A stretch of 58,403 nt of DNA, from positions 1-58,403 of the forward strand of contig CANQWT010000002.1 of the NCBI GenBank assembly GCA_947627635.1. The letters are read 5' to 3'. This document shows, piece after piece, positions 25,601 to 40,664 of this stretch (its first letter is position 1; each line of letters starts with the position of its first letter). The translations under genes were made by a program, and so were the position numbers. Source of the DNA: an uncultured Bacilli bacterium. Lineage in GTDB: Bacteria; Bacillota_I; Bacilli_A; RF39; UBA660. The notes under the pieces are model-generated. The model worked only from the letters and a program-made list of their open reading frames with translations. It was not told the DNA's origin and did no database searches.

Positions 25601-27257
25601 TAATTAAATAAAAGGGAATTTTTCCTTTTTTACTATTATCATTTGATTTATTGTTGGCACTGCGTTGATTAAATATTCGCACCAAATAGGTTGAAATATT
25701 TTCAGCATCTTGTAAATTTGTGGCAAAAAATCGCATTGATTTATCATTATCCCAACAATGATTTAAATTTTTTAACTTCATTAAATTAGAACTGGTATCA
25801 CTTGTTAAGATGACTAATTTTAAGTTTGCATAATCATGAAAAGTAAGTAGTTGTAATAAAATCGCATTCATATAACTGGTGTAATTTTTAGCATTATTGA
25901 TAAATGCTAAACTTTTTTCTTTATTTAAAGAAATACTAAAAGGAACATCATTGACATATTTAAATTCATCTAACAACTGATCAATATCATCTAATAATTT
26001 ATCTTTTGACTGAACAAAATCAGGTTTATCATAATTGATTTCACAGTCCAAAAGAACTCTACCTTTTCCTAAACGAACACTTAAAAAATCATCTTGTTCA
26101 ATTCCTCTTGAAAATAATGCTGAAGTTCTATTTTGTATAATATCTGCACATTGTTCTAAAGACACATTATTAAATTCAAGTGTCATTTTTTGTTCATTAC
26201 GACTAGCTTCTAAAACTTTTCTTTTCTTCTTTAAATACTTTGTATAAACATGTATTCTTCTTCGTTCTACTACAGTTCTTCTTATTTTAGATGCAAAGCG
26301 TTCTACAAAAGGCCAAAGAATAGATACAATTAGCATAACAACACACATTACAAGTGATGTTACAATAGTCTCTTTATTGCTTTCTCCTTTTTGATAACTC
26401 TGAATAGAATAATAAGCTTGTAAAACAGAAGTTAAACTCATTAGTCCAGAAGGAACAATTTGTAATAGAAGTGATCCTTCATCAGTTCTATCTTTTTCAT
26501 TAGGACTTGTAATAGTCAAATGTAAAGTATTGATTTTCTTTCTAAATATAGGTGATTTGTTAAAATATTCATTTGTCTCATAGAAATCTTTATATACTTC
26601 ATTATGAATTTCTCGGTCTCTTTCTGAAAGATAAGCAATTTCATCTGTAAGCTTATTATTAAAGAAATATGCATTATCTAAAGGAGATTTAATAAATATA
26701 GTTTTTCCACAAACTACAATTTTTAAACCCATGATAAAAAGAGTATCTAAATTTGAAAGACGTGCAGATGTTTTATTTGCTTTATTCACATAAACAGGAA
26801 CTTGAACATTTAAATTCTTATAAGACCAATAACCATTTTGATAAGTTAATTCTACTTGTTTTTCAGCAATACTTGGAAAACTATAAACAATATCGCATCC
26901 TTCTTTACCTACTGTTAAAGTACAAGTATCTTGACTAAGAGTTTTTCCTATATAACCTTTTTCTAAAGCTGGAGAAATATAAAGAAGTAAATTCTCAGTT
27001 TTATAGACATTTAAAGAATAGAAATTATATTCTTTTAATTCAATATTTTCTGCATATTGTCCATTATAGAAGATTTGCATATCCTCATTTGACTTCATAA
27101 ACCACTTTTCGTCATTATAGGCATAAATATTAACAAGACTTCTTTTTATTCCATTAGTGTCATAGTCAAAAAGGACATAGTTACCTGATACTGTTTTAGG
27201 CAATCTAAAAGTAAATATTCGATCGCTATGTATAATATATATCAGCATACTCTTCAC
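22674..27257 (-). CDS. essC: Type VII secretion FtsK/SpoIIIE-family ATPase EssC (YukB-like)
   Basis: 1527 aa; N-terminal FHA-like region, two TM segments, ATPase modules with GMTGSGKSE and GASGSGKST Walker A motifs, and a degenerate third module. Likely true start is ATG 27248 (GGGG SD); 27257 is GTG. Confidence 0.9.
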   Translation of the reverse strand: MKSMLIYIIHSDRIFTFRLPKTVSGNYVLFDYDTNGIKRSLVNIYAYNDEKWFMKSNEDMQIFYNGQYAENIELKEYNFYSLNVYKTENLLLYISPALEKGYIGKTLSQDTCTLTVGKEGCDIVYSFPSIAEKQVELTYQNGYWSYKNLNVQVPVYVNKANKTSARLSNLDTLFIMGLKIVVCGKTIFIKSPLDNAYFFNNKLTDEIAYLSERDREIHNEVYKDFYETNEYFNKSPIFRKKINTLHLTITSPNEKDRTDEGSLLLQIVPSGLMSLTSVLQAYYSIQSYQKGESNKETIVTSLVMCVVMLIVSILWPFVERFASKIRRTVVERRRIHVYTKYLKKKRKVLEASRNEQKMTLEFNNVSLEQCADIIQNRTSALFSRGIEQDDFLSVRLGKGRVLLDCEINYDKPDFVQSKDKLLDDIDQLLDEFKYVNDVPFSISLNKEKSLAFINNAKNYTSYMNAILLQLLTFHDYANLKLVILTSDTSSNLMKLKNLNHCWDNDKSMRFFATNLQDAENISTYLVRIFNQRSANNKSNDNSKKGKIPFYLIISDHIEMYRNLKIVENVLDNSDDIGFGIMMFGQKLTDIPDGCDNFIDYNEKQASIFKAEMEEKNIHNFTPEFLSDAIDFNYYVKLINNIPIQVTKDQQGSLPTRLGFLEMYGVGKIEQLNILNRWKNSNVTTTLAAPIGVDSKGNIISLDLHETKHGPHGLIAGMTGSGKSEFIITYILSLAVNYSPDEVQFVLIDYKGGGLAGAFENRKTRMKLPHLVGTITNLDKSEMNRTLVSINSELQRRQRIFNEAKEKLDTGNMDIYKYQKLHREGTLEEPLSHLFIICDEFAELKSQQPDFMDELVSTARIGRSLGIHLILATQKPSGVVDEQIWSNSRFKVCCKVQTTDDSNEMIQRPDAAYLKDSGRFFLQIGYDEFFTEGQSGYSGIAYTPTETVTSKIDNSISFISNIGENYKSIDNKQGQSTKKKEDLGEELINILKYIIDVANQEHFTYQQLWLDSLPQNVYYDTIVKKYNVLPTLYDIDPVIGEYDDPKNQKQDYVHLPITTEGNAYLVGASGSGKSTLLSTLIYSSIINHNAEEVQFYIVDFGTEKLRKFQKAPQVGDVLTIADGNKITYLFYMLEAEKSKRQKYYAENGSDFLTDVKQHKSPFANIIVIIYDIEVFKEVYQDLYDEKFVPFTRNCSKFGIYFIVTSTSTSSLGFMAENNFPQKIMLNMVDITDYAMYFDKPPIPNKTPGRGLIQIDEPYEFQVPLITSEEEEPKVLSYVIEQLDKFLVKKAPPVPFVPQEVSLSDIKNYITTLKQIPIGINIQTAQPGYFNLEKSITVISSSRVKDVIPFFNFFITMCSSLENVNIIVLNALKDMDLDIPEKVKFYDGGFAKIMPVLEKNVIKYNEQGQSPNRFMIIVLGYEELSKHIGELNNEETSIINIGELVDLAKKNESFKFVLYDTASMCDELKNGDISNLVDLSSGIWIGRGFDSQNILDAPDAYNDNVKMTNDIAVLVKNGQSEYVKFVKKI

Positions 27258-27928: not shown

Positions 27929-29929
27929 ATGGAAAAACAAGAAGTCATTGAGGCTATCCATACCTTGAGGAGATACAGTACAGAAACAAATAGAATTGAA
28001 GCAAAATCTGCATTATTAGGATTTCCTAAAAAATGTTACGATACGTTTTCAAGTTTTTCTAATAAATATGGTGGAATGATTATCTTTGGTATTCGTGAAG
28101 AAAACAATTTTTCCACAGAAGGTGTTTATAACATTAAAGACTTACAAAAACAAATTACTGCACTATGTACTGATGCTATGGAGCCTTCCTTGCGTTGTGA
28201 TATATTGCCATTGGAATTTGAAAACAAAAAAATTTTAGCAGTAAAAATAGATGAGTTAAATTCAGCAATGAAACCTTGTTACTATAAACCTAAAGGTCTT
28301 AAAAAAGGGTCTTATACAAGAGAAGGCGATAGAGATGAGCCAATGACGGACTACGAAATTTATGCAATTCAAAGTTATAATGACCATATTGTAGAAGATA
28401 AAAGACCAAATAGAAGTGCAACTTTAGAAGATTTAAATACGGAACAGTTAAATTCCTATATCCAAAGAATAAAAAATGAAAAGCCTAATTTTTCAAAAAA
28501 CTCTTTTGAAAAGTGCTTAAAATTATCTGGTATTACAGATACAACTGATAGTACAATTCTTCCGACACTCGCAGGTACACTCATTTTTGGTGAATATCCT
28601 CAAGCGTTTTATCCACAGTTGTTTGTGGCATGTACTGTTATTCCAGGAATTGATATCGGTGAAGTAAGTGAATTAGGAGAAAGATTTTTGGACAACAAAC
28701 GTGTAGAAGGAACCATTGAAGAAATGTTAGAAGAAACCATGAATTTTTTACGAAGAAATATGAAAACAAGAGTGATTATAAATTCAAATGGAAAAAGAAT
28801 CAATAAAACAGAATATCCACTAAAAGCTTTAAGAGAAGCTGTTGCTAATGCACTCATTCATAGAGATTATAGTAAGCAAACAGAAAATGCTTATATTTCT
28901 GTATACATGTATGCTGATAGAATTGAAATTTTAAATCCAGGTGCACTTTTTGGAACAAATAAATTGGAAAAACTTGGAACTGCAACAGTCATGGAAGCTA
29001 GAAATCCTAATATTGTTAGAATACTAGAGGAGAAAGGTGCTGTCATTGAAAATAGACATTCTGGAATTCCTACTATGAAAAGAGAAATGAGAAAATATGG
29101 TTTACCTGACCCAGAGTTCTATGAAGAACGAGGAAGTTTTAAAGTAGTTTTTAGAAATACCTCTTTGGAAGAGGAAGGTGGACAAGTGGAACAGCAAATG
29201 AAGCACAATTTCCAGCAAAGTGGACAAGTGGAACAGCAAATGGAGCAGAATTTCCAACAAACTGGACAAGTGGAACAGCAAATGGAGCAGAATTTCCAAC
29301 AAACTGGACAAGTGGAACAGCAAATGGAGCAAAATTCCCAACAAACTGGACAAGTGGAACAGCAAATGGAGCACAATTTTCAACAAACTGGACAAGTGGA
29401 ACAGCAAATTGAACAAAATTTCCAACAAAGTGGACAAGTAGAGCAACAAATGGAACAGAATTTTCAACAAAGTGAGCAAGTAGAGCAACAAAATTCAACT
29501 AAAAAACTTCAAAATACTGTGCTAAAATACTGTGCTACTCCAAAAAACATTAAAGAAATTAGTCAATATTTAAATATTACTTCTAGGCAATATTTATCCA
29601 CATATATTATAAATCCTCTTATTAAAGAGAAAAAATTAGTTTATGCTATAGAAGAAAGTATACACTCAAGAAATCAAAAATATATCTCTAACAAAGGAAT
29701 AAATTTGCAAAATCGAAAAAATATTAGTGAATATAAGAACATGATTTTAAAGTTTTGTTCATCACCGAAGAGTTTTAAAGAAATTTGCCAACATTTAAAA
29801 ATATATTCTAGAAAATATATATCTTCAAATATCATAAAACCACTTATTAAAGAAGGAAAACTAACATATACAAACCCTGAAAAAATTCAGGTAAAAAACC
29901 AAAAATATATAACAGTACAAAAAGATTAG
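27929..29929 (+). CDS. AlbA_2 (Schlafen-like) + HATPase_c_4-type putative DNA-binding/regulatory protein with internal 14-aa tandem repeats and two C-terminal wHTH-like modules
   Basis: 666 aa; N-terminus ...ETNRIEAKSA... and ...ALREAVANALIHRDY... typical of 'divergent AAA / putative DNA-binding' proteins; duplicated C-terminal LK[YF]C..PK..KEI.Q.L... modules. Confidence 0.7.
   Translation: MEKQEVIEAIHTLRRYSTETNRIEAKSALLGFPKKCYDTFSSFSNKYGGMIIFGIREENNFSTEGVYNIKDLQKQITALCTDAMEPSLRCDILPLEFENKKILAVKIDELNSAMKPCYYKPKGLKKGSYTREGDRDEPMTDYEIYAIQSYNDHIVEDKRPNRSATLEDLNTEQLNSYIQRIKNEKPNFSKNSFEKCLKLSGITDTTDSTILPTLAGTLIFGEYPQAFYPQLFVACTVIPGIDIGEVSELGERFLDNKRVEGTIEEMLEETMNFLRRNMKTRVIINSNGKRINKTEYPLKALREAVANALIHRDYSKQTENAYISVYMYADRIEILNPGALFGTNKLEKLGTATVMEARNPNIVRILEEKGAVIENRHSGIPTMKREMRKYGLPDPEFYEERGSFKVVFRNTSLEEEGGQVEQQMKHNFQQSGQVEQQMEQNFQQTGQVEQQMEQNFQQTGQVEQQMEQNSQQTGQVEQQMEHNFQQTGQVEQQIEQNFQQSGQVEQQMEQNFQQSEQVEQQNSTKKLQNTVLKYCATPKNIKEISQYLNITSRQYLSTYIINPLIKEKKLVYAIEESIHSRNQKYISNKGINLQNRKNISEYKNMILKFCSSPKSFKEICQHLKIYSRKYISSNIIKPLIKEGKLTYTNPEKIQVKNQKYITVQKD
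29180..29494 (+). repeat. In-frame 42-bp tandem repeat, about 7.5 copies (GQVEQQMEQNFQQT units)
   Basis: Units start at 29180, 29222, 29264, 29306, 29348, 29390 and 29432, with a partial eighth copy; copies differ by single substitutions. Confidence 0.9.
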
Positions 29930-29968: not shown

Positions 29969-30757
29969 CTAAAGCACATTTGCCATTTCTACAAAGACTT
30001 CATAAGGAATTGCTTCTGCTCTTGTTTGAAAAGTAAAACCATGTTTCATCAAGATAGGTTCAAGCTTCTCTTTTGGATAGTCCCTCAAATTGTTATATAA
30101 AGTCTTGCGTTTAAAACGAAAGCTATCATGCACAAGCTTAGAAAATACATCCCAACTCTTTAACTCCAACAAATCCTTTTTCCTTTTAAAGTCAACAACA
30201 ATGCTGTCTACATGAGGTTGAGGTATAAATTCACTACGAGATACTACAAAACATTTCTTCACTTCAAAGTAATAATTCAACAACACTGTAAGTGCACCAT
30301 ATTCTCTACTCTTAGGTTTCGCAGTAAATCTTTCCCCCACTTCCTTTTGAACCAACATGACAATTTCCAAAAAAGGAAGATTAGATGCCAATAACTTAAA
30401 GAGAATAGGGGTCGTAATGTAATAAGGAACATTACTTACAAAGTACAAGTGTGAATGAGCTATAGCACTAATGTCACGTACCAAATCTCGCTCTAAGAAG
30501 TCGTCAAATATCAGCTTAACATTATCCTTATTACCCAATTCCTTCGTTAAAATATCTTCAAGTTCCAAATCAACTTCATAACAAAGCACTTTCGTTGCGA
30601 CATTTGCTAACTCCTTTGTTAACGCTCCAGCTCCTGGACCTACTTCTATCACCAAACTATCTTTTTGATAAGAAGGAAGATTTGCGATTTTCACAAGTAC
30701 CTGTGGATTTCTTAAAAAATTCTGTCCATATTTCTTTTTAAAACGAAAATTTTCCAC
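29969..30757 (-). CDS. rsmA: 16S rRNA (adenine1518/1519-N6)-dimethyltransferase RsmA/KsgA
   Basis: 262 aa; KKYGQNFL N-terminal motif, EVGPGAGALT SAM motif, NVPYYITTPI. Confidence 0.92.
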   Translation of the reverse strand: MENFRFKKKYGQNFLRNPQVLVKIANLPSYQKDSLVIEVGPGAGALTKELANVATKVLCYEVDLELEDILTKELGNKDNVKLIFDDFLERDLVRDISAIAHSHLYFVSNVPYYITTPILFKLLASNLPFLEIVMLVQKEVGERFTAKPKSREYGALTVLLNYYFEVKKCFVVSRSEFIPQPHVDSIVVDFKRKKDLLELKSWDVFSKLVHDSFRFKRKTLYNNLRDYPKEKLEPILMKHGFTFQTRAEAIPYEVFVEMANVL

Positions 30758-30934: not shown

Positions 30935-31540
30935 TTATATTTTGTTAAATTCATCAATAGCATCCAAGATTTTGTATACACTAGTATGTGGATTTGCATT
31001 GATTAAATCATCACCATCACTAATAGCTCTCTGTTCTAAAGATTTAGCAACTACTCTAGCTTCGTCAGTATGGTTCTTTATAATCCTATATATATCCATC
31101 GTCTCATAGTATGTTCCATTTACCTTTTCTATTTCCTTTTTAACATCTTGGCTACTATTCAATTTTAATTTATTATTTCTATAGTGTAATAAATACCATA
31201 TTTCAAATGTTGGAGCGGATGTAATTATTTCAATATTGTTTTCTACACATTTTCCTGTTATCTCTTTTATCTCACATATTCTTCTATCATCTAAATCTGT
31301 ATCTAACACCAAAAATATTTTTACATTATCTTCTGATTTAATATCTTCATTTTGAATATATTTTAATAAATCATCTAACATACCTTTGGGGTCTGTACTA
31401 TTTCCTGTTGAAAATTGTATTCTTAAATCTCTAGTACGATAATTTCTAAAATAATAGTACTCTGAAGACTTTGTTCCTCCTTCGGAACATATTACAATTA
31501 ACGGTCTTTTTTCCTTTTGTTTTATTTGTCTTCTAGCCAT
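30935..31540 (-). CDS. RloB-family protein (TOPRIM-like), AbiLii-like
   Basis: 201 aa; N-terminal ...PLIVICSEGGTKSSEYYYF... resembles the RloB CEG..TE..YF signature; 19-nt overlap with the upstream ATPase gene. Confidence 0.7.
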   Translation of the reverse strand: MARRQIKQKEKRPLIVICSEGGTKSSEYYYFRNYRTRDLRIQFSTGNSTDPKGMLDDLLKYIQNEDIKSEDNVKIFLVLDTDLDDRRICEIKEITGKCVENNIEIITSAPTFEIWYLLHYRNNKLKLNSSQDVKKEIEKVNGTYYETMDIYRIIKNHTDEARVVAKSLEQRAISDGDDLINANPHTSVYKILDAIDEFNKI

Positions 31541-32790
31541 AAATCAACATCTCTTATAAATGGAATTGCTCCATATCTACCATTTATATAACCCTTCTGA
31601 ATGTTTTCATCTTTTCGTACAGGAAATGAATCAAGTGGATATAAATCAGAAATACCAGTTTTGGAATTTTTTTCAGTAAACCAAATCTGGTCTCTTCTTA
31701 ATAAATCAAGATTTAATAGATTTGTAGCATGTGTCATAAATATTAACTGACTATTAGCTTTATTGATTTCCTTATTATTAAAAAGTTTGATGATAAACTC
31801 CACTAATGCTGGATGCATACTTTTTTCTAATTCATCAATAATTATTATTTTGGTACTTTCAAATGATTTTTTTAAGAACGGCGCCAATGCAAATAAGACA
31901 CGAGTACCTGAAGATTCATCGCTAAAATTCAATTTATAATTATGCGAATTATTATTTTCATCAACTATTTCATGCTCAAGTTCAATATTCACATTAGACA
32001 TTTTAAATGTTCCGTTTGTTCTAACAAGTGGTGGAATAAGCATATTTATCATTGTACTATCCATATCTTTTTCTTCATAATCAACATGTATATCTTTAAT
32101 TAGTATATCAGCTTCTTTTAATAATTTTAATGCAAATCCTTTTAGGTTTTTGTCGTTACTACTATACTCTTTTAAGTCTTGGTCTGAAATGTTATTAAAA
32201 GCATCATATGTATCTATGGCACTACTAAACCATAAATATGCATCTTTTGTTTTTTCATAATTCCAATTTGTTGCAGTTGATAAAAACAATTTATTTTCTG
32301 TATTTTTAGATTTCAATGGCACTAATTTATTTTTATCACTATTAAACTCATATATATCTGTTTTAGTTCTTGTAAAGATATTGGTTGGTTTCTGTGTGTA
32401 ATATGCATCTAAAACCTCATCATAAATTCTATCAGCATCAGCACTAAAGAAGTATCTATATTTTACATCATTTGCAATAAAGATGAATTCAAATTCACTA
32501 GGATTATTTTTAGATGTTTCATCGAATAAAAATGGTTTTAAAAAATTCCATTTACCTCCTACTGAAATCAAATTAGAATTTCTTACCATAAGTATTGCAC
32601 AAGTAAAAGCTTTGAATAAGTTAGATTTACCAGAAGCATTAGCTCCATATATAGCAGCTGTTTTTAATAAATCTAATCCATCTTTAGAAATGACATTATC
32701 TAAATTTTCATCTCCGGTTCCTTTTTCCATTGATAATGTTACTTTCTCTTTAAATGATAAAAAATTTTTAACACTAAATTCAATAAGCAT
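31522..32790 (-). CDS. AAA/ABC-like ATPase (AAA_15/AAA_21 type), AbiLi-like partner of RloB
   Basis: Walker A GANASGKSN; Walker B IIIIDELEKSMHP; start set to ATG 32790 (GGAGGAG 6 nt upstream). Confidence 0.8.
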   Translation of the reverse strand: MLIEFSVKNFLSFKEKVTLSMEKGTGDENLDNVISKDGLDLLKTAAIYGANASGKSNLFKAFTCAILMVRNSNLISVGGKWNFLKPFLFDETSKNNPSEFEFIFIANDVKYRYFFSADADRIYDEVLDAYYTQKPTNIFTRTKTDIYEFNSDKNKLVPLKSKNTENKLFLSTATNWNYEKTKDAYLWFSSAIDTYDAFNNISDQDLKEYSSNDKNLKGFALKLLKEADILIKDIHVDYEEKDMDSTMINMLIPPLVRTNGTFKMSNVNIELEHEIVDENNNSHNYKLNFSDESSGTRVLFALAPFLKKSFESTKIIIIDELEKSMHPALVEFIIKLFNNKEINKANSQLIFMTHATNLLNLDLLRRDQIWFTEKNSKTGISDLYPLDSFPVRKDENIQKGYINGRYGAIPFIRDVDLWLEDK

Positions 32791-32890
32791 AATTATCTCC
32801 TCCAATAATATTATACTCTTTTTTAAGTAAATTTGTGATTATTTTTATGTTTTTTGCATATTTTTCACAAATTTATAAATAATATCGCAT

Positions 32891-32919
32891 ATTTTAACTA
32901 TTATTAGTATATTTGTCAA
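32891..32919 (-). promoter_or_regulatory. Sigma-A-type promoter for the ATPase-RloB operon
   Basis: Minus strand: TTGACA (32919-32914) - 17 nt - TAAAAT (32896-32891). The 5' UTR contains a 10-bp inverted repeat AAATTTGTGA / TCACAAATTT (32829-32838 / 32865-32874). Confidence 0.55.
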
Positions 32920-33033
32920 GATAAATATTATACTTTAACTTTTGGTTCATTGGCCCAAAGGGAAGCAGTATTCATTTAATAATCGTTCGTGTTAAATAAC
33001 TAATCCGATTTTTAGACGGATTTTTATATCATA

Positions 33034-34380
33034 TCACCATGACTCATGTAATTCTGCCATTACTTTCATCATTGATTTTATAATAATTGTTTGTAACAAT
33101 TCTGTATTTCCATCTTGGTCAATTTTTTGTAATGCTTCTAAATACTCATCTCTATTATCAGAATCAATATATATTGGACATAATTTTTTTAACCTTAATA
33201 ACCAATTTGTTAAACCTCTTGTAATTCTACCATTTCCATCATTAAATGGGTGCAAAATAGTCATATTATAATGAATTCCAGCAACTATACTTACATATTC
33301 CGATATTGAATATTTATCAATGTTTTCTTTAACACTTTGAATTACTTTATTTAATTCATTCATTTTATCAATGATTTCAGTATATGGAACAGGTTGTATT
33401 TTTCCACCCAAAATCATATTATCGCTATTTCTGTACATGCCAGCATATTCTGGGTAAGGTGCATACTTATATAACATCTTATTCAAATCTTTAATTTTAA
33501 ATATATCTAATTCTTCTTTTGTTTCTATACAATATTGATTCATTTCAATGTTACCAAGTGCTTCAATTATATTTTGATTTTCGCTTTTACAATATTCACT
33601 TTCACTACCGTGAATCCTTAAATCAGCAAATATGCCATTTACTTCTTCCTTCGTAACATTAACTTTTTCAATTCTACTATCATGATATACTAAATTTTGA
33701 ATAAACCTAATTCCTATAATTTCATTTAAATTTACTATAGAAAAGTAACTATAATCAACTGCATTCATCAATAGATTTAAATCGGTAGTACTTTCAAAAA
33801 GTTCTTTTCTTTTAGTAGTAGGTCTATATTTCTTTATTTCTTTCGTCAACTCAACATTATCTAAATCTTTCTCAAAACGTTTTAACCTAAAACAAATTGT
33901 CTTAACACACGCTTCAAAACTAACTCCAAAATACTCAGCAATTAGTAAGCATTCATCCATACCAACTTTACCATCTTTATCTTGATACATATCAACTTGT
34001 TTATTTAATTCCTCAGTTGGCATCAATAAATTCGATGCAAAAGAATCAGCCTCTTTTTCAATGTCATTTTTAATACCAGAAATAGGACATAGAAAATTAT
34101 TAGAATGAACTTGAGTATGCATTAAAATATGTCCTAATTCATGTGCAGCAGTAAATCTCTGCCTAGTAATTTGCCTATTCATGTTAATAGCAACTACTGA
34201 TTTCTTCTTATCATATAATAACAAACCCTCTAATTTATCAAAATTAGAATATGTAATAATTGCACCAATGTCTTTTAGCAATTCAAATGGATTTATTGGA
34301 AATGATATATTCCCCTTTGTCTCTTTGATTCTTTTTAATACTTTTTCTGCTGCTAGAATTGTTTTGGCAATATTGTACAC
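33034..34380 (-). CDS. Fusion protein: N-terminal ImmA/IrrE-family zinc metallopeptidase + C-terminal Fic domain
   Basis: 448 aa; HEXXH as AAHELGHILMH in the first 100 residues (COG2856-like context); C-terminal Fic motif HPFNDGNGRITRG; 3-nt gap from the upstream XRE gene. Confidence 0.8.
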   Translation of the reverse strand: MYNIAKTILAAEKVLKRIKETKGNISFPINPFELLKDIGAIITYSNFDKLEGLLLYDKKKSVVAINMNRQITRQRFTAAHELGHILMHTQVHSNNFLCPISGIKNDIEKEADSFASNLLMPTEELNKQVDMYQDKDGKVGMDECLLIAEYFGVSFEACVKTICFRLKRFEKDLDNVELTKEIKKYRPTTKRKELFESTTDLNLLMNAVDYSYFSIVNLNEIIGIRFIQNLVYHDSRIEKVNVTKEEVNGIFADLRIHGSESEYCKSENQNIIEALGNIEMNQYCIETKEELDIFKIKDLNKMLYKYAPYPEYAGMYRNSDNMILGGKIQPVPYTEIIDKMNELNKVIQSVKENIDKYSISEYVSIVAGIHYNMTILHPFNDGNGRITRGLTNWLLRLKKLCPIYIDSDNRDEYLEALQKIDQDGNTELLQTIIIKSMMKVMAELHESW

Positions 34381-34383
34381 AAA

Positions 34384-34695
34384 TTATTCCTTATAATTAT
34401 TTTTAAATTTAATTAGATTTATTATTTCTTGTTTATCTTTTTCAGATAGACTATCAAATCCCCTGGCAAAAACTTGATTATTCATATCAATTTCTTTTTC
34501 ATCAGATACTATTTCTTCCATTGTAATACCATACAATTTTGAAAACTTATATAATTCATCAGACTTAACAGAACGATTATCATTTTCAATATTAACAATA
34601 ATATTTCTAGTTAAATTTAGTGTAGTGGCAACTTGTTCTTGTGTTAATCCTAAAAATTCTCTAGCAGCTTTTAGTTTTTCTCCACAGCTTTTCAT
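34384..34695 (-). CDS. XRE-family helix-turn-helix transcriptional regulator
   Basis: 103 aa; LKAAREFLGLTQEQVATTLNLTRNIIVNIENDNR is a classical Cro/C1 HTH. Confidence 0.85.
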   Translation of the reverse strand: MKSCGEKLKAAREFLGLTQEQVATTLNLTRNIIVNIENDNRSVKSDELYKFSKLYGITMEEIVSDEKEIDMNNQVFARGFDSLSEKDKQEIINLIKFKNNYKE

Positions 34696-34718
34696 ATTTA
34701 CTCACTCCCATGCATTAA

Positions 34719-34748
34719 ATTATACCACATCATGTTGAATTATTCAAC
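34719..34748 (-). promoter_or_regulatory. Promoter with overlapping palindromic operator for the XRE / ImmA-Fic operon
   Basis: Minus strand: TTGAAT (34747-34742) - 17 nt - TATAAT (34724-34719). Perfect 7-1-7 palindrome GTTGAATTATTCAAC (34734-34748) covers the -35. An extra half-site TGTTGAAT lies at 34764-34771. Confidence 0.6.
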
Positions 34749-34930
34749 TTTTATAATATAATATGTTGAATTTTTTAAAATGTATTAAAGATTTGTATAT
34801 CCCAATATCTACCGCAAACTAGCAAACTAATCAATTAGCCAAACTCACAAAGCATGACAAACCAACCAGACTAGCTAGCTAAAGCACCCAGCCTCCCATA
34901 CCATCCAAACACTTCTCCAAAAAAGACAGC

Positions 34931-34960
34931 ATCAAAAAAAAGCACTACGCATGCTTTTTT
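34931..34960 (-). terminator. Weak intrinsic terminator at the end of the sipW operon
   Basis: AAAAAAGCA-TGCGTAG-TGCTTTTTTTT on the minus strand, overlapping the stop codon. Confidence 0.35.
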
Positions 34961-35529
34961 GTTTTACGGTATTCATGTTCTTCCGCATCTTCTCTATCTT
35001 TATCTTCATAGCCCTCGCTGTCATCTCTATAACCATCTCTGCTATCTCTGCCACCTCTATAGCCATCTTCTTTTCTATTCCGCCTATCCACATTCCTGCT
35101 ATCCTTCTTTGCTTCCTTCAAGTGGAACATAAACAAAACATTGGCGATACATAAACCATAAAGCATTATCTTCATGAATGGCAAGAAATTCGCAAAGAAG
35201 TTAAAGTCCATATTGAAGCTATTGAGTGTTCCAATAATCAAACGATGGTCACACACAGTTCTTGCACCAACAACTAATATCGTCGCATAAATAATACATG
35301 ACGTCAAATTATAAAACAAATTCCCTCTCACAGTCTTCTGATTAAATATCATGTTAATCATATACAAAAGCAGCAAAATTCCAAAAGGAACAAAAACATT
35401 GATAGTCGTCATAAAACTCTTCTCAAGCCTTCTATTCATTTGCACAAGAATTAAAAGAGTAATCGCAAAAGAGGCAATAAACATAAACAAACTCAGGATA
35501 TAAAATAACCATGTCAATATCTTTTTCAT
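34945..35529 (-). CDS. Polytopic membrane protein with R/D/G/Y-rich charged C-terminal tail
   Basis: 194 aa from ATG 35529 (GAGGAGG 5 nt upstream); about 5 TM segments; tail DGYRGGRDSRDGYRDDSEGYEDKDRE...; last gene of the sipW operon. Confidence 0.6.
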   Translation of the reverse strand: MKKILTWLFYILSLFMFIASFAITLLILVQMNRRLEKSFMTTINVFVPFGILLLLYMINMIFNQKTVRGNLFYNLTSCIIYATILVVGARTVCDHRLIIGTLNSFNMDFNFFANFLPFMKIMLYGLCIANVLFMFHLKEAKKDSRNVDRRNRKEDGYRGGRDSRDGYRDDSEGYEDKDREDAEEHEYRKTKKHA

Positions 35530-35539
35530 TTTAACCTCC

Positions 35540-36232
35540 TCATCCACCTTGAGCTACATTCCGATACCATTCTGATAAGTTCGAAAGAAAAGCAAGAGAA
35601 CGCTTATAATAATTCACCATCTCAAGATAACTATTCTTCGTAAGCTCAAAGACACTTGACTTAGAATCATCATTACTAAAATAGTAAATATCATTATTCT
35701 TCATATTGTTCTTTAAATATCCAAGCCCACCTGATAACAATTGGTCCATTTCAACCTTCAAAAAAGGAGCAATTTGTTGTAGTCTCGCACTCTTAATTGA
35801 AGTGTTTTCATTACCAAGATTATAGAGTTGAATAACAACACAGTCATTTAAAACCTCATTTTGATAATAGCTTGCAAGGTGATAAACGTCATTGATAGTA
35901 TATTCTTCCTTACTAAATAGCTCTTTTAATTCGTCCGTTTCAAATACATTGGCACAGAAATTCAGTTTTGTCTGCATGTTTAGCATATCAAAGACTTCCT
36001 CAGGTCCTTGGTAAGTTGCTTGACTATAGCTCGCAGCATTCGCTTTGATTTTCTCAACTTCCTTCATTATCGCATCATAGTCCGTACCATTTTCTTGATT
36101 AGGACGATAGGTTGTGTTGACTTCCTTATAATGATAGAAGTTCAAAAACAAAAGGAAAAAAGAAAGTCCGAATAATAGTCCAATAATTGTCGTTCCCACA
36201 ATATGGGCATACTCCACAAAAAATGCTTTCAC
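35540..36232 (-). CDS. N-terminally membrane-anchored hypothetical protein
   Basis: 230 aa, GTG start, one TM segment; tightly packed between its neighbours in the sipW operon. Confidence 0.5.
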   Translation of the reverse strand: MKAFFVEYAHIVGTTIIGLLFGLSFFLLFLNFYHYKEVNTTYRPNQENGTDYDAIMKEVEKIKANAASYSQATYQGPEEVFDMLNMQTKLNFCANVFETDELKELFSKEEYTINDVYHLASYYQNEVLNDCVVIQLYNLGNENTSIKSARLQQIAPFLKVEMDQLLSGGLGYLKNNMKNNDIYYFSNDDSKSSVFELTKNSYLEMVNYYKRSLAFLSNLSEWYRNVAQGG

Positions 36233-36238
36233 CAGTAA

Positions 36239-36775
36239 TCACGCTCCTATTACCTTTGTTTTAACTTGATAGTGATAGAATTTATTTTCCCATTCCCCTG
36301 GGTTCACGTCGCTATGGACCCAAATCGTTAGTTCATAGCTGTTCTTTTGTTTTCCTTGAATAATTCTCTCGTCCAAGACATTCTTCTTAATGCTTGAAAG
36401 CTCTCCCTTATGAATAACTTTCCCATTCATTTTCAGTTCATACTCCAATTGACTTCTTTTCAATAAGTCTTCTTGACGATATCCTACTTTATTAGAGACA
36501 GGGTCTTCTTCAATGAGTAGTTGATAATGACTATCCTTGTTACTCGTGTTACTAACAGTAAACGTATATGGCACCATATCTCCACTTGGATTATCCATAG
36601 GAGCATCTTGAGTAGTGTCAATAGAGCCATTACTAGAATACTCAATATTTAAAACAGACACCTCTTCACCCTTCTTGCTTTCACCATAGAAGATTTTGCT
36701 CCATGCAATAGAAGTGATAAATATAAATACAAATAGGACTATCCCTCCAAAAAATAATGCAATATTTTTTTTCAT
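36239..36775 (-). CDS. Secreted or anchored protein with signal-anchor, distant relative of the TasA-like family (accessory candidate)
   Basis: 178 aa; N-terminal TM ending ..SIAWSKI; C-terminal YELTIWVH.. and ..YQVKTKVIGA echo the YRLRMW.. and ..V[KR]VNV.. blocks of the paralogs; starts 1 nt after sipW. Confidence 0.55.
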   Translation of the reverse strand: MKKNIALFFGGIVLFVFIFITSIAWSKIFYGESKKGEEVSVLNIEYSSNGSIDTTQDAPMDNPSGDMVPYTFTVSNTSNKDSHYQLLIEEDPVSNKVGYRQEDLLKRSQLEYELKMNGKVIHKGELSSIKKNVLDERIIQGKQKNSYELTIWVHSDVNPGEWENKFYHYQVKTKVIGA

Positions 36776-36776
36776 C

Positions 36777-37580
36777 TTATCGGAACCTCTTTCTTTTATC
36801 TTTTTCTTGACTTCGCTCTTGATATCTCTCTTGATATCGTTCTTGATACTTTTCTCTATCTTTCTCTCTGTCTTTATCTCTTACTCTTTCTTTTTCTTTA
36901 ATTTCCAAGACTTCTATCTCTTGCCTTGGTTTGGCCTTCTTTTTCTTTTTTGGTACAACGCTTTGCTTAATGGTCTTGAGTAGTTTAATGATATCATAGA
37001 TAATAATTGCAAGACATGGAACAACAACAGCAATGATCCAACCATAAGCTTGTGTTAAGAAGTACTGGATATATCCTATTTTTGGTATTCGCAAGACGAC
37101 TTTTCCAAAGATATTGTCATAGGATACACGGCTACTATCAGGGGTATTGTTATTATCTCCTTTTGTTGTATATAACACTTGTCCGCTTTTGGTTTTTTCG
37201 ATACCTACAATTCTATGTGTGACTGTAACACCTGAATAGCGATAGTCTGTGGAATTAAAGGTTATGATATCTCCCTTTTTTAATTCGTCTTTGTCTACTC
37301 TTTTTATAATCACAGCATCTTCTACTTTTATTGTTGGAACCATACTTGGACTTACGATGACATAGGCATTGAATAATGGAGGTAGGTTTTTCCCACTGTC
37401 AATGTTTCTTTTCTCATCGATAAAATGGAGTGCCACTACTATTCCAACAAGTATTAAGATTAGTAAAATTGTATACATGATAACGGTTGTTACAAAGTGT
37501 AGTACTTTTTTGATGTAATATAAAGCTGTCTTTGGGGTTTTCTTTTTGCGTTCCCTTTCTTTATTCATTCTACCACCCAT
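36777..37580 (-). CDS. sipW: Signal peptidase I, SipW (ER/archaeal) type, with C-terminal TM and charged repeat tail
   Basis: 267 aa; SPSMVPTI catalytic Ser block, ..ITFNS.., TKGDNNNTPD block, C-terminal TM, then KDREKDREKYQERYQERYQER tail (12-bp x3 repeat at 36828-36863). Confidence 0.8.
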   Translation of the reverse strand: MGGRMNKERERKKKTPKTALYYIKKVLHFVTTVIMYTILLILILVGIVVALHFIDEKRNIDSGKNLPPLFNAYVIVSPSMVPTIKVEDAVIIKRVDKDELKKGDIITFNSTDYRYSGVTVTHRIVGIEKTKSGQVLYTTKGDNNNTPDSSRVSYDNIFGKVVLRIPKIGYIQYFLTQAYGWIIAVVVPCLAIIIYDIIKLLKTIKQSVVPKKKKKAKPRQEIEVLEIKEKERVRDKDREKDREKYQERYQERYQERSQEKDKRKRFR

Positions 37581-37653
37581 CTTATCCTTATACTATTTAT
37601 ATAATAGCACAAAAACTTTCCAAATAAAAGTATTAACATACCTTTTTGACAAA

Positions 37654-37684
37654 GAAAAAAAGCTACTTGCTTCTATTTAGTAGC
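37654..37684 (-). terminator. Intrinsic terminator after TasA-like paralog D
   Basis: GCTACT...AGTAGC stem (37662-37667 / 37679-37684) followed by a U-run on the minus strand. Confidence 0.5.
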
Positions 37685-38301
37685 TAATCTGTAACAACTC
37701 CACCTTTAACGTTTACTCGTACTGTAAAGGAAAGTCCAACACCATCCAGTATAGCATCTTGTTTAATCCACATACGTAGGCGATATCCTATGTTTTCTGT
37801 ATGAGTAGAAGTTCCTTTAGTTAAAAGCATTGTTCCTTTTTCTGTTCCCCAAGTTGTTTCTTTTGTAAGTGGTGTGAATACTTTTGGTGCCATGACTTCT
37901 TCATAAGTTGCTCCTTGTTTTTTTTCAAGATAGAGTTTGACTTGGTCATCTTTTAATGTAGAATTGACGTCTTTTTCTGCGGATACTTCATAGGCAATAG
38001 TAGCAGTTCCACTAATTGTAGTACCAACTGTAAAGTCAAAATACTCTCCTACTCCACTTAATTTTTTACCAACGTCGTCTGAAGTAGGTAGGGCATCTTC
38101 AATATGAATACCATTTGTACTTTCTTGATAAGTCATACGAAGTGTACCTGTACGAATTGTATTGGATTCTTCTCCACGTCCTGTGAACTTAATGGTAGCA
38201 AATGAAATACCAAATATTGCAATAAGTAAAATTAAAACAGCAATAATACTAACATATAAAGAACCACTTTGGTCTTTTTCTTCTTCTTGTTTCTTTTTCA
38301 T
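37684..38301 (-). CDS. TasA-like / SipW-dependent-type signal peptide protein, paralog D
   Basis: 205 aa from ATG 38301 (AGGAGG upstream); ..GISFATIKF...IRTGTLRMTY, YFDFTV, YRLRMWI and VRVNVKG blocks shared with paralogs A-C. Confidence 0.7.
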   Translation of the reverse strand: MKKKQEEEKDQSGSLYVSIIAVLILLIAIFGISFATIKFTGRGEESNTIRTGTLRMTYQESTNGIHIEDALPTSDDVGKKLSGVGEYFDFTVGTTISGTATIAYEVSAEKDVNSTLKDDQVKLYLEKKQGATYEEVMAPKVFTPLTKETTWGTEKGTMLLTKGTSTHTENIGYRLRMWIKQDAILDGVGLSFTVRVNVKGGVVTD

Positions 38302-38484
38302 AAATAGCCTCCTATTATTAACTAAATTATAGCATAACAAGAAAAGTTTGAAAAGAAAAAATTGTAGAAGAATAGAATTAGAATAAATTAGTTTGTAAAA
38401 GACCACTAATTAAAGTCAAAGAAAAAGAATAGAACATACCACTTTTATGTCAAATATATCGATATAGTTCTAAGAGAAAAAACA

Positions 38485-39509: not shown

Positions 39510-40664
39510 GTGATGTATATGTATGAAATAATAGAATGGTATAATGCTTATTTTTATAAAGATAGAACTATCAAGTTTCGTCTTAAAGATATTTTTTCTG
39601 ATCATTGGGATAATTTTGTCAGGGAAAACCCTAATCTAAATATTAGACCTGTTGTTCATAAAGAAGTGAATCGCATGATTTCTTGTCATACTTCTGAATT
39701 AGGTTACTCTGTCTACGAATGTCCTGACTGTGGCGAAATCAAATTCTCCTATCACACCTGTAAATCTAGGTTTTGTCCTTCTTGTGGTAACAAATATGTT
39801 AGAAAAAGAACTGAAGCCATTCTTCAAAAATGTTATAACTGTAAACATCGTCATATTGTTTTTACTATTTCTGATTATCTATGGAATTTCTTCCGTAAAG
39901 ATAGAAAACTTATTGACTTACTTTTTCAAGCTGTTTCTAAAACTATTCTTTCTTGGTTTGCTGATAAATCTAAAAAAGAACATTATATTCCTGGTATTAT
40001 TGCTGTCTTACACACTTATGGTAGAGATATGAAATGGAATCCTCATATTCATACTATTGTTACCGAAGGTGCTATGGGTAATCTTAATATCTTTAAAAAA
40101 TTTGATTTTATTTCTTATGATGCTTTAAGAAAACGTTTTCAAAAAATACTTCTAGATTTATTAGAAAAAAAGATTAACTCTAAAAGCTTTAAACAACTTA
40201 AAAACTTTATCTATAAAAAGTCTAATAAAGGCTTTTATGTTTATGCTGAAAAGAAATGTAATCAATCTACTCAACATATGATTGAATATGCTGTTAGATA
40301 TACTGGTAAACCTGCTATGGCTGAATCTAGAATTCTGGATTATGATGGTGAATATATAACTTTCTGGTATCAAAGACACGAAGACAATAAAATTATTAAG
40401 GAAAAAATTCATGTCTATGAGTTCTTTAAACGTTTGATTATTCATATTCCCGATGAAAATTTTAAAACTGTTAGATATTATGGAATATATTCCAAAAAGC
40501 ACAAATTTCATGATAAAATGTTTATGTTAATCAAACATCAAACTCACAAATTAAGAAACTCTCTTAATTCTTGGAGAATGATGATATTGAAAGACTTTGA
40601 TATTGATCCTATTCAATGTCCCAAGTGTGGTAACCAAATGAAATGGCAATATCGAGTCTGTTAG
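39510..40664 (+). CDS. IS91-family transposase (N-terminal zinc-binding domain + Y2 transposase core)
   Basis: 384 aa; CPDCG...HTCKSRFCPSCG zinc-binding region, HIVFT, LHTYGRDMKWNPHIHTIV (HUH-like) blocks. Start ambiguous (GTG 39510, ATG 39513 or 39519). Confidence 0.8.
   Translation: MMYMYEIIEWYNAYFYKDRTIKFRLKDIFSDHWDNFVRENPNLNIRPVVHKEVNRMISCHTSELGYSVYECPDCGEIKFSYHTCKSRFCPSCGNKYVRKRTEAILQKCYNCKHRHIVFTISDYLWNFFRKDRKLIDLLFQAVSKTILSWFADKSKKEHYIPGIIAVLHTYGRDMKWNPHIHTIVTEGAMGNLNIFKKFDFISYDALRKRFQKILLDLLEKKINSKSFKQLKNFIYKKSNKGFYVYAEKKCNQSTQHMIEYAVRYTGKPAMAESRILDYDGEYITFWYQRHEDNKIIKEKIHVYEFFKRLIIHIPDENFKTVRYYGIYSKKHKFHDKMFMLIKHQTHKLRNSLNSWRMMILKDFDIDPIQCPKCGNQMKWQYRVC

Follow-up and report, generated by a model that had tools for sequence, protein, structure and literature searches.

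An XRE repressor and M78-Fic fusion cassette of gut Firmicutes, a candidate cleavable-repressor switch with a built-in effector

The closest described counterparts of the locus reported here are CapH/CapP, which regulate the transcription of CBASS and further defence operons, and the related DdrO/IrrE and ImmR/ImmA pairs, in which a small XRE repressor with a carboxy-terminal oligomerisation segment adjoins an M78 metallopeptidase that contains an HExxH motif. ImmR is the classical substrate of ImmA. CapP and IrrE share a common build, namely a peptidase domain, a central linker domain that resembles a helix-turn-helix (HTH), and a GAF sensor domain, with single-stranded DNA (ssDNA) bound between the peptidase and the GAF domain. 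CapP cleaves CapH upon an ssDNA signal, and its Cys113 functions as a zinc-coordinating 'cysteine switch' that holds CapP inactive until ssDNA binds; the cysteine-switch loop is found in about a third of CapPs. A second relevant group consists of the class II Fic proteins (FICD/HYPE, SoFic, CdFic, BtFic and the PADLOC candidate PDC-S04), of which SoFic is a defensive member that AMPylates EF-Tu and deAMPylates it too. Our analysis of a window of 58,403 nucleotides (nt), the whole stretch of contig CANQWT010000002.1 presented above, from an uncultured Bacilli bacterium, reveals a two-gene cassette in which the two groups meet: a separate XRE repressor gene is followed by a gene encoding a CapP-type M78 peptidase fused to a Fic domain of probable class II type (the M78-Fic fusion).

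Peptidases of this kind have also been linked to toxins. Makarova et al. 2009 predicted that an Xre-cleaving COG2856 protease controls a toxin, which amounts to a three-component toxin-antitoxin (TA) system, and the available passages of the RosmerTA literature describe 'antitoxins' made of an HTH and an M78 domain that are paired with varied toxins.

All features of the cassette lie on the minus strand, and its extent is about 1.75 kb (about 33030-34785). A preliminary description of this DNA had noted a 103-residue HTH gene followed after 3 nt by a 448-residue open reading frame (ORF), and the ORF calls agree: the XRE gene occupies 34384..34695, and 3 nt after its stop codon the fusion gene (33034..34380) begins with a GTG start preceded by an AAGGA ribosome-binding site. 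The protein-coding features are as follows, with residues numbered within each protein.

34384..34695, minus strand: XRE/Cro-C1 repressor of 103 residues, with an ImmR/CapH-like HTH (residues 5-62) and a conserved carboxy-terminal segment (residues 76-98)
33871..34380, minus strand: M78 (ImmA/IrrE/CapP-type) zinc peptidase domain, residues 1-170 of the fusion protein, from Pfam, the PADLOC capP profile and structure alignments
34129..34143, minus strand: HExxH of the zinc site, H80-E81-xx-H84
34087..34089, minus strand: Cys98, the predicted cysteine switch, from alignment to CapP 7t5t
34057..34059, minus strand: Glu108, the third zinc ligand, kept in all 169 members compared
33706..33870, minus strand: helical linker, residues 171-225, with AlphaFold2 helices at 175-209 and a predicted local distance difference test score (pLDDT) of ~90
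33037..33705, minus strand: FICD-like Fic domain, probably of class II, residues 226-448, from Pfam, PADLOC, profile and Foldseek matches
33661..33687, minus strand: candidate inhibitory-helix motif YHDSRIEKV, residues 232-240, including Glu238, aligned to FICD
33217..33252, minus strand: Fic active-site motif HPFNDGNGRITR, residues 377-388, of the form HxFx(D/E)GNGRxxR

Both domains that the preliminary description had read from motifs in the 448-residue protein are matched by Pfam above their cutoffs. In the amino-terminal half, Peptidase_M78 (PF06114) covers residues 49-160 (3.7e-17, 62.7 bits against a gathering cutoff of 22), and the proposed ImmA/IrrE HEXXH motif, AAHELGHILMH, corresponds to residues 78-88. 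This score, the HExxH with its downstream Glu and the regularly adjacent XRE gene (see below) place the domain in the M78/COG2856 family. Within that family the affinity is to CapP: the best PADLOC match is capP (1.1e-32, profile positions 5-147 of 242), a profile built from 60 family sequences finds CapP 7t5t (2.4e-12) and also IrrE among solved structures, and Foldseek recovers the same two proteins, with 179 aligned columns and 27% identity for CapP 7t5t. In a pairwise alignment to Thauera CapP, Cys98 falls on the cysteine of 'FQC', which is Cys113, and in the AlphaFold2 model it sits on a predicted beta-strand (residues 95-99); the switch loop is six residues shorter than that of Thauera CapP. 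As judged from this alignment, the peptidase is of the cysteine-switch CapP type, with zinc coordination by Cys98 predicted. R73 appears to be the positional equivalent of R90, an ssDNA-contact residue of CapP, and is a residue conserved in IrrE-like proteins too. The GAF-side ssDNA-contact residues of CapP are absent from the fusion protein. The linker is probably the counterpart of the HTH-like domain in the middle of CapP and IrrE, and the 179 columns of the Foldseek alignment, which exceed the ~123 positions of the Pfam M78 family, plausibly reach into it.

In the carboxy-terminal half, Pfam Fic (PF02661) matches residues 292-395 (2.6e-9, 38.2 bits against a cutoff of 24), and the active-site motif that had been called canonical, HPFNDGNGRITRG, is indeed present at residues 377-389; score and HxFx(D/E)GNGRxxR motif are those of a Fic/Fido AMPylase. 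PADLOC matches this half with Fic profiles from defence islands, PDC-S04 (3e-21) and SoFic (1.7e-18), the latter limited to the Fic core. The family profile has FICD/HYPE as its top match among solved structures (3e-20), and Foldseek returns FICD, BtFic and CdFic, with a target-normalised template modelling (TM) score of up to 0.77. In the profile alignment, the family stretch YHDNRLEN is aligned to YHTVAIEG of FICD, so that Glu238 takes the position of Glu234, the residue that serves both inhibition and deAMPylation in FICD. The proposal that YHDSRIEKV is an intramolecular inhibitory-helix motif with its Glu retained and its flanks altered thus gains support from alignment. The AlphaFold2 model, computed from the family alignment, is confident throughout (pLDDT 92.2, predicted TM score 0.88). 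The Fic domain occupies the place that the GAF sensor domain has in CapP and IrrE. This replacement, the CapP-type cysteine switch and the probable assignment to FICD-like class II Fic proteins were absent from the preliminary description.

The fusion is the hallmark of a sizeable family. More than 110 full-length clusters at 90% identity contain both Pfam domains (39-92% identity), full-length representatives at 50% identity number 40 to 60 among 1.84 billion proteins, and more distant variants of 520-570 residues retain both domains. Members as distant as ~35% identity still have the full-length fusion, and neither of their active sites is disrupted. Species-representative genomes contain at least 482 matching stretches, a count of stretches and not of full-length fusions; from these, 80 loci were kept, and at least about 70 species-level genomes contain the fusion at full or near-full length. 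The 80 kept loci come from metagenome-assembled genomes (MAGs) of gut Bacilli and Clostridia, from Clostridium, Acetobacterium, Lachnoanaerobaculum and Ammoniphilus, and from a few Chloroflexi. Residue conservation was counted in 169 distinct full-length members. H80, E81, H84 and E108 of the zinc site, the predicted inhibitory E238, and H377, G382, N383 and G384 of the Fic motif are present in 169/169 members, R385 and R388 of the Fic motif in 168/169, and the switch residue C98 in 167/169. Because these sites are invariant or nearly so, the alignment indicates purifying selection on the two enzyme activities as well as on the two predicted auto-inhibitory devices.

What is conserved around the fusion is the XRE gene. 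ORFs were called in 76 loci, and in 72 of them an XRE homologue lies directly upstream on the same strand, typically at a distance of -8 to +8 nt and usually as an 8-, 4- or 1-nt overlap or with a gap of 0-4 nt. Such a junction suggests that the two genes are translationally coupled. Clustering of the neighbouring ORFs in the 76 loci brought up no further conserved gene; the cluster ranking next is present in 12 loci. Since no other gene is conserved beside the pair, the output must lie inside the cassette. Compared as DNA, the closest relatives (74-89% protein identity) are homologous from ~85 nt ahead of the XRE start to the stop codon of the fusion gene, and these two borders define the ~1.75-kb cassette, which occupies different chromosomal places among close relatives. 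Thus, the unit of selection is an autonomous two-gene cassette.

Several loci depart from the standard arrangement. In one sub-clade (L008:7352-7789, L021:7328-7771 and 8 other loci), a third gene overlaps the end of the fusion gene and encodes a product of ~145 residues with GPGGG(L/M)Y repeats and no Pfam match, which may be an added component there. Five of the 76 copies (L005, L055, L063, L070 and L071) contain TAA/TAG nonsense codons or frameshifts, all of them in the peptidase half, with the XRE gene intact; such copies would fit a costly gene that is disarmed now and then, and may also reflect assembly errors in MAGs. At L077:102-3708, an XRE gene and a 158-residue M78 peptidase (46% identical to the peptidase half) are followed by a separate 919-residue ResIII-helicase/HNH/TPR protein. 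This last arrangement suggests that the effector slot is exchangeable, as it is in CapH/CapP-regulated operons and in RosmerTA.

The DNA upstream of the XRE gene contains the control elements listed below, all of which fall within the homologous block of the relatives (half-site, palindrome, -10 hexamer and ribosome-binding site).

34719..34747, minus strand: sigma-70-type promoter, with the -35 hexamer TTGAAT at 34747..34742, a 17-nt spacer and a TG-extended -10 hexamer TATAAT at 34724..34719
34701..34709, minus strand: ribosome-binding site GGGAGTGAG of the XRE gene, read from the sequence, with GGTGA/GAGTGA kept in relatives
34734..34748, no strand (palindromic): candidate main operator, the perfect 15-bp palindrome GTTGAATAATTCAAC (GTTGA-N5-TCAAC), overlapping the -35 hexamer
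34763..34770, minus strand: candidate auxiliary operator half-site TTCAACAT, a direct repeat 31 nt upstream of the matching palindrome half

The promoter TTGAAT-17-TATAAT and the perfect palindrome over it had both been pointed out beforehand; they are found as described, the promoter with a TG extension in addition, and in the alignment of close relatives the -10 hexamer and the promoter spacing are kept. The half-site TTCAACAT is invariant in the five close relatives aligned. One AT-rich palindrome alone is not significant, as 11 of 100 shuffles gave at least two matches at up to 2 mismatches. Across the family, 43 of 69 loci have a perfect palindrome of the form GTnnn-N5-nnnAC between -140 and +60 relative to the start of the XRE ORF, compared with 40 of 3530 background windows of 200 nt from the same loci (1.1%), and the resulting binomial P of ~1e-65 overstates independence, the loci being phylogenetically related. 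The arms vary by clade (GTTGA, GTTAG, GTCAG, GTAAT, GTTGG, GTTCG and GTCAT) at constant geometry, and this variation speaks against a palindrome that is merely inherited. Co-varying arms are the pattern expected of an operator that co-evolves with its repressor, and together with the conservation across loci they favour the earlier suggestion of a likely autoregulatory operator. In the 58-kb window, no second copy of GTTGAATAATTCAAC is found at up to 2 mismatches, which makes it a single site.

The product of the XRE gene resembles CapH along nearly its whole length. Its HTH is recognised by Pfam (HTH_19/HTH_3, 4.5e-14), its best PADLOC match is capH (9.8e-13, residues 3-99, profile positions 6-99 of 103), and its best match among solved structures is the HTH of ICEBs1 ImmR (8e-8). 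The carboxy-terminal segment has the form FARxFxxLSExDxxEIxNLIxFK, common to 72 XRE partner proteins. Its CapH counterpart is the dimerisation domain, which CapP cuts between F82 and R83. The F-A-R motif resembles this cleavage site, and by analogy XRE is the presumed substrate of the fused peptidase.

Building on the gene order, domains, catalytic sites, lock residues, candidate operator and neighbour-independence that are observed, we propose that the cassette is an autorepressed switch of the CapH/CapP or ImmR/ImmA type whose output is the fused Fic AMPylase, and that it functions as a toxin or abortive-infection module, a reading whose chances we judge to be about even. An XRE dimer would bind the 15-bp palindrome over the -35 hexamer together with the upstream half-site and keep the operon at a low basal level. 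The fusion protein made at that level would be doubly latent: Cys98 on its beta-strand would cap the catalytic zinc, as in CapP, and Glu238 on the inhibitory helix would block productive ATP binding in the manner of FICD and other proteins of class II. The cysteine switch would be opened by a signal of stress or infection, for which DNA damage, a phage-derived signal (for example ssDNA) or a ligand at the interface of peptidase, linker and Fic domain are candidates, and the peptidase would then cut XRE in its conserved carboxy-terminal dimerisation segment. Repression would be lost, the fusion protein would accumulate, and the Fic domain would AMPylate an essential host protein, leading to growth arrest as a toxin or abortive-infection response. 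The Fic domain could become active through concentration or oligomerisation, through the loss of bound XRE, or through the same conformational change that opens the switch. The cleavage of XRE, the nature of the signal, the release of the Fic domain, its target and the toxic or defensive outcome we infer by analogy with the systems described above.

A bolder version of this scheme is conceivable. In the predicted CapP-CapH complex, CapH binds the GAF domain through its HTH and the peptidase through its carboxy-terminal helix. If, correspondingly, the HTH of XRE docked on the Fic domain and its carboxy-terminal helix on the peptidase, then XRE would be repressor, Fic antitoxin and protease substrate at once, and one signal, by opening the cysteine switch, would at the same time eliminate XRE, relieve the repression of the operon and expose the AMPylase. 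We regard this as speculative and rather unlikely. To our knowledge, regulation of a Fic domain by proteolytic removal of a bound repressor through a protease fused to it has not been described. The signal might also be sensed by the Fic domain itself, as the successor of the GAF sensor.

Several observations weigh against the proposed switch with a Fic effector. With the GAF domain, half of the CapP/IrrE ssDNA groove is absent, and the CapP trigger is not simply transferable. The inhibitory Glu is invariant, so the Fic domain may be mostly off, or may be a deAMPylase like FICD and SoFic. In the inhibitory motif, the position of the usual S/T (234) is always D or E in the 169 members, and the position of the usual G/N (239) is K in the window (G/N in 136/169, K in 24/169). 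Since Asp caps the N terminus of a helix well, as Ser and Thr do, the change from [S/T] to [D/E] is read as conservative. Enrichment for defence genes beside the cassette is only weak: the 132 proteins that directly flank it are a mixture of restriction-modification, BREX, integrase/recombinase and housekeeping functions, in which no family from Pfam or PADLOC is seen more than 3 times. Among 50,697 phage records there was no full-length copy, and 72,556 plasmid records yielded a single one. A search for expression returned DNA metagenome runs from rabbit gut only and no RNA runs; the matching runs show that the window comes from a rabbit-gut organism.

The phage collection did contain three matches (H1-H3) to the peptidase half, which is 33-35% identical to unannotated proteins of Peduovirus P2 (31025-31504) and of a Salmonella phage. 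By sequence, these P2-type phage proteins look like CapP/ImmA-like peptidases.

The same features allow other explanations. The cassette could be a TA module for addiction or stabilisation, in which a labile XRE antitoxin would neutralise the fusion protein and repress the operon, the peptidase would set the turnover of XRE, and phages would play no role. Two tightly coupled genes with the autoregulating HTH gene first form a typical type II TA layout, with which the candidate operator is consistent as well; Makarova et al. 2009 proposed Xre-COG2856 as TA-like and list Fic/Doc-Xre pairs; and the patchy distribution, the variable contexts and the pseudogenised copies (5/76 loci) would suit such a module. 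Nearly all copies, however, are chromosomal, with the one full-length plasmid match given above, and a cysteine switch implies signal-dependent rather than constitutive proteolysis. We consider a pure addiction role unlikely, bearing in mind that TA function and defence are not mutually exclusive. The position of the Fic domain raises a different doubt, since it lies exactly where CapP and IrrE have their ligand-sensing GAF domain: it could be a sensor or regulatory domain that gates the peptidase through ATP or nucleotide binding or through auto-AMPylation, in which case the output would be XRE-controlled genes in trans. The invariant inhibitory Glu would agree with this, and so would the finding that SoFic binds its own promoter, which shows that Fic proteins can regulate. 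The full motif H-x-F-x-D/E-G-N-G-R-x-x-R, however, is kept in 168-169 of 169 members, which is more than nucleotide binding alone needs; the window has no further operator copy within 2 mismatches, no conserved neighbour genes are there to be regulated, and the two genes travel together between unrelated contexts. Because nothing else is conserved, no second operator exists in the 58 kb, the catalytic motif is complete and the L077 arrangement points to an exchangeable effector slot, the Fic domain is probably effector and not sensor, and we regard the sensing role as quite doubtful.

Even as an effector, the Fic domain might be mainly a deAMPylase or a reversible homeostatic modifier, comparable to FICD acting on BiP or to the constitutive deAMPylation by SoFic, and might tune a host protein under stress. 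FICD/HYPE are the closest solved relatives, all 169 members have the Glu with which FICD carries out deAMPylation, and EF-Tu is constitutively deAMPylated by SoFic. Tight repression combined with a protease lock would nevertheless be costly for a housekeeping modifier, and the patchy distribution, the pseudogenes and the matches of the Fic half to the defence-island profiles PDC-S04 and SoFic point elsewhere; such a role seems to us improbable. Finally, M78/XRE pairs are typical of prophages and the XRE HTH is nearest to ICEBs1 ImmR among solved structures, which brings to mind a remnant ImmR/ImmA induction switch of a degraded prophage or integrative and conjugative element, with the Fic domain incidental. 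This is largely refuted and retains hardly any probability. No integrase, phage or conjugation genes lie beside the cassette in the window, nor do they flank it in most relatives, and the full-length fusion with both active sites intact is kept to ~35% identity. In addition, the 'plasmid unnamed1' of Bacillus pumilus (NZ_CP154914.1, locus L081), a 40.5-kb circular, phage-like element with XkdW/XkdX, holin, endolysin and integrase genes, carries the cassette at a typical site for accessory genes, with the lysis genes on one side and the integrase on the other, and has a separate ImmA and HTH repressor pair of its own. Since the element keeps that pair, the cassette is probably not a lysogeny switch.

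Set beside named systems, the cassette shares parts with each and the defining architecture of none. It resembles CapH/CapP in its top PADLOC matches, in the aligned switch Cys and in the operator over the promoter; unlike in CapP, the GAF domain is replaced by Fic and the capP profile is covered only in its first part, and unlike in CapH/CapP, there is no adjacent conserved defence operon to regulate, the effector being fused to the protease. Class II Fic proteins agree with the Fic half in fold and in the amino-terminal inhibitory Glu aligned to FICD E234, whereas the Fic domain of the cassette has a protease as its fusion partner where they have TPR or a winged HTH, and its inhibitory motif is [D/E]xxxE[G/N/K] where theirs is [S/T]xxxE[G/N]. 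SoFic itself is a Fic domain with a carboxy-terminal winged HTH, and the fusion protein reaches only 20.8 bits against the cutoff of 550 of the SoFic family in NCBIfam (NF046030) and is far below the NmFic cutoff also. RosmerTA, as far as the available passages describe it, likewise brings together the HTH of an XRE protein, an M78 peptidase and a toxin as a defence or TA module of two genes with exchangeable toxins, and its RmrA profiles match both proteins of the window in part. RmrA, however, is an HTH fused to the peptidase with the toxin RmrT separate, whereas in the cassette the HTH is a protein of its own and it is the putative toxin that is joined to the peptidase. Those passages mention no Fic-type RmrT, no search for Fic, ImmA and RosmerTA together having been made. 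The Xre-Fic 'mobile mystery proteins A/B' (TIGR02613) have an XRE gene beside a Fic protein on mobile DNA, but the match to mob_myst_B is weak (4.9e-7, 29.8 bits against a cutoff of 124). In the TA idea of Makarova et al. 2009, the predicted toxins are PIN and RelE encoded by separate genes, with no protease-Fic fusion. The cassette would thus work like a CapH/CapP or ImmR/ImmA switch, and like RosmerTA with the fusion partner swapped, yet it is a member of none, because it has no GAF domain and no separate operon, its HTH is unfused and its scores are far below the SoFic and mob_myst_B cutoffs.

The statement that this is not a named defence system also stands as far as PADLOC is concerned, which matches the parts separately (capH, capP, PDC-S04 and SoFic). 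Public annotation of the fusion protein reads 'ImmA/IrrE family metallo-endopeptidase' or 'ImmA/fido' only. Searches of full texts in the literature returned no description of the fusion; their coverage excludes most subscription journals, so that this is absence of evidence only.

Of the synteny break in which the preliminary description had placed the cassette, the window shows only a dip of the guanine plus cytosine content to 25-29% at 31-35 kb. Directly downstream of it, at 30935-32805 (minus strand), is a complete AbiL pair of AbiLi (427 residues, AAA_21) and AbiLii (201 residues, RloB). The AbiL-like neighbours seen in the preliminary description are real (PADLOC AbiLi 4e-95, AbiLii 3e-15); their suggested part in a common stress- or phage-triggered effector system with the cassette did not hold. 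The pair has a strong promoter of its own (TTGACA-17-TAAAAT, 32919..32891), there is no second operator copy, and of 75 other loci a single one has AbiLi in the neighbourhood, 4.6 kb from the cassette. AbiL was rejected as a component of the cassette on these grounds and is a separate abortive-infection system, not a conserved partner. Other contigs with the same KsgA are only 1.9-3.4 kb long, too short for a synteny test, and have an identical AbiL neighbour. Scans of the surroundings found no convincing att-like direct repeats flanking ~30.6-35.1 kb, no structured RNA at 30-36 kb apart from a single sub-threshold chance match to a small nucleolar RNA, and no transfer RNA genes in the 58-kb window. 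No intrinsic terminator was detected by scan 3' of the fusion gene, where by eye a weak ATCCG/CGGAT hairpin alone is seen.

Further genes and sequences of the window are recorded here for completeness. A stretch of ~110 nt (34800-34905), past the terminator of the preceding gene and upstream of the cassette promoter, is unusually G/T-rich in the minus-strand reading; it has no Rfam match and is not kept in relatives. Directly upstream of the cassette, 34945-38406 (minus strand) contains a row of small membrane or secreted proteins with amino-terminal anchor sequences, among which the gene at 36777..37580 (minus strand) has a weak match to signal peptidase S26 and ends in a KDREKDREKYQERYQERYQER repeat. 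An IS91-family transposase (Y2_Tnp and Zn_Tnp_IS91) is encoded at 39510-40664 (plus strand), ~5 kb upstream of the cassette. On the other side, at 27929-29929 on the plus strand and hence opposite to the cassette, a 666-residue protein contains AlbA_2/Schlafen and HATPase_c_4 domains and a sub-threshold Fic-like_C match. Its gene lies between a ksgA-type methyltransferase gene (29969..30757) and a small ORF, which from its sequence we take by eye to be veg-like, and it could represent a further gene for an accessory or defence function in this islet. At 22674-27257 (minus strand) follows a 1527-residue FtsK/SpoIIIE-family ATPase with several P-loop regions, which resembles EssC of type VII secretion.

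The component parts of the cassette are familiar. What appears to be new is their combination: a predicted anti-repressor protease of the cysteine-switch type is covalently joined to a FICD-like, presumably auto-inhibited AMPylase that replaces the sensor domain, and the two form, with the repressor, a conserved and portable two-gene unit. Defence-finding tools label its halves as 'regulator' and 'candidate Fic' and overlook the unit. If the proposed model is true, the cassette would be the most compact cleavable-repressor immune switch yet, with sensor, anti-repressor and effector in one protein next to a 103-residue repressor, and it would join two separate fields, the proteolytic switches of the ImmA/IrrE/CapP type and the auto-inhibited Fic AMPylases. 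It would also provide a natural system for how bacterial class II Fic proteins are switched on, a question that is unsettled even for SoFic and FICD. Being small, self-contained and widespread in gut Firmicutes, the cassette is directly transferable to model hosts.

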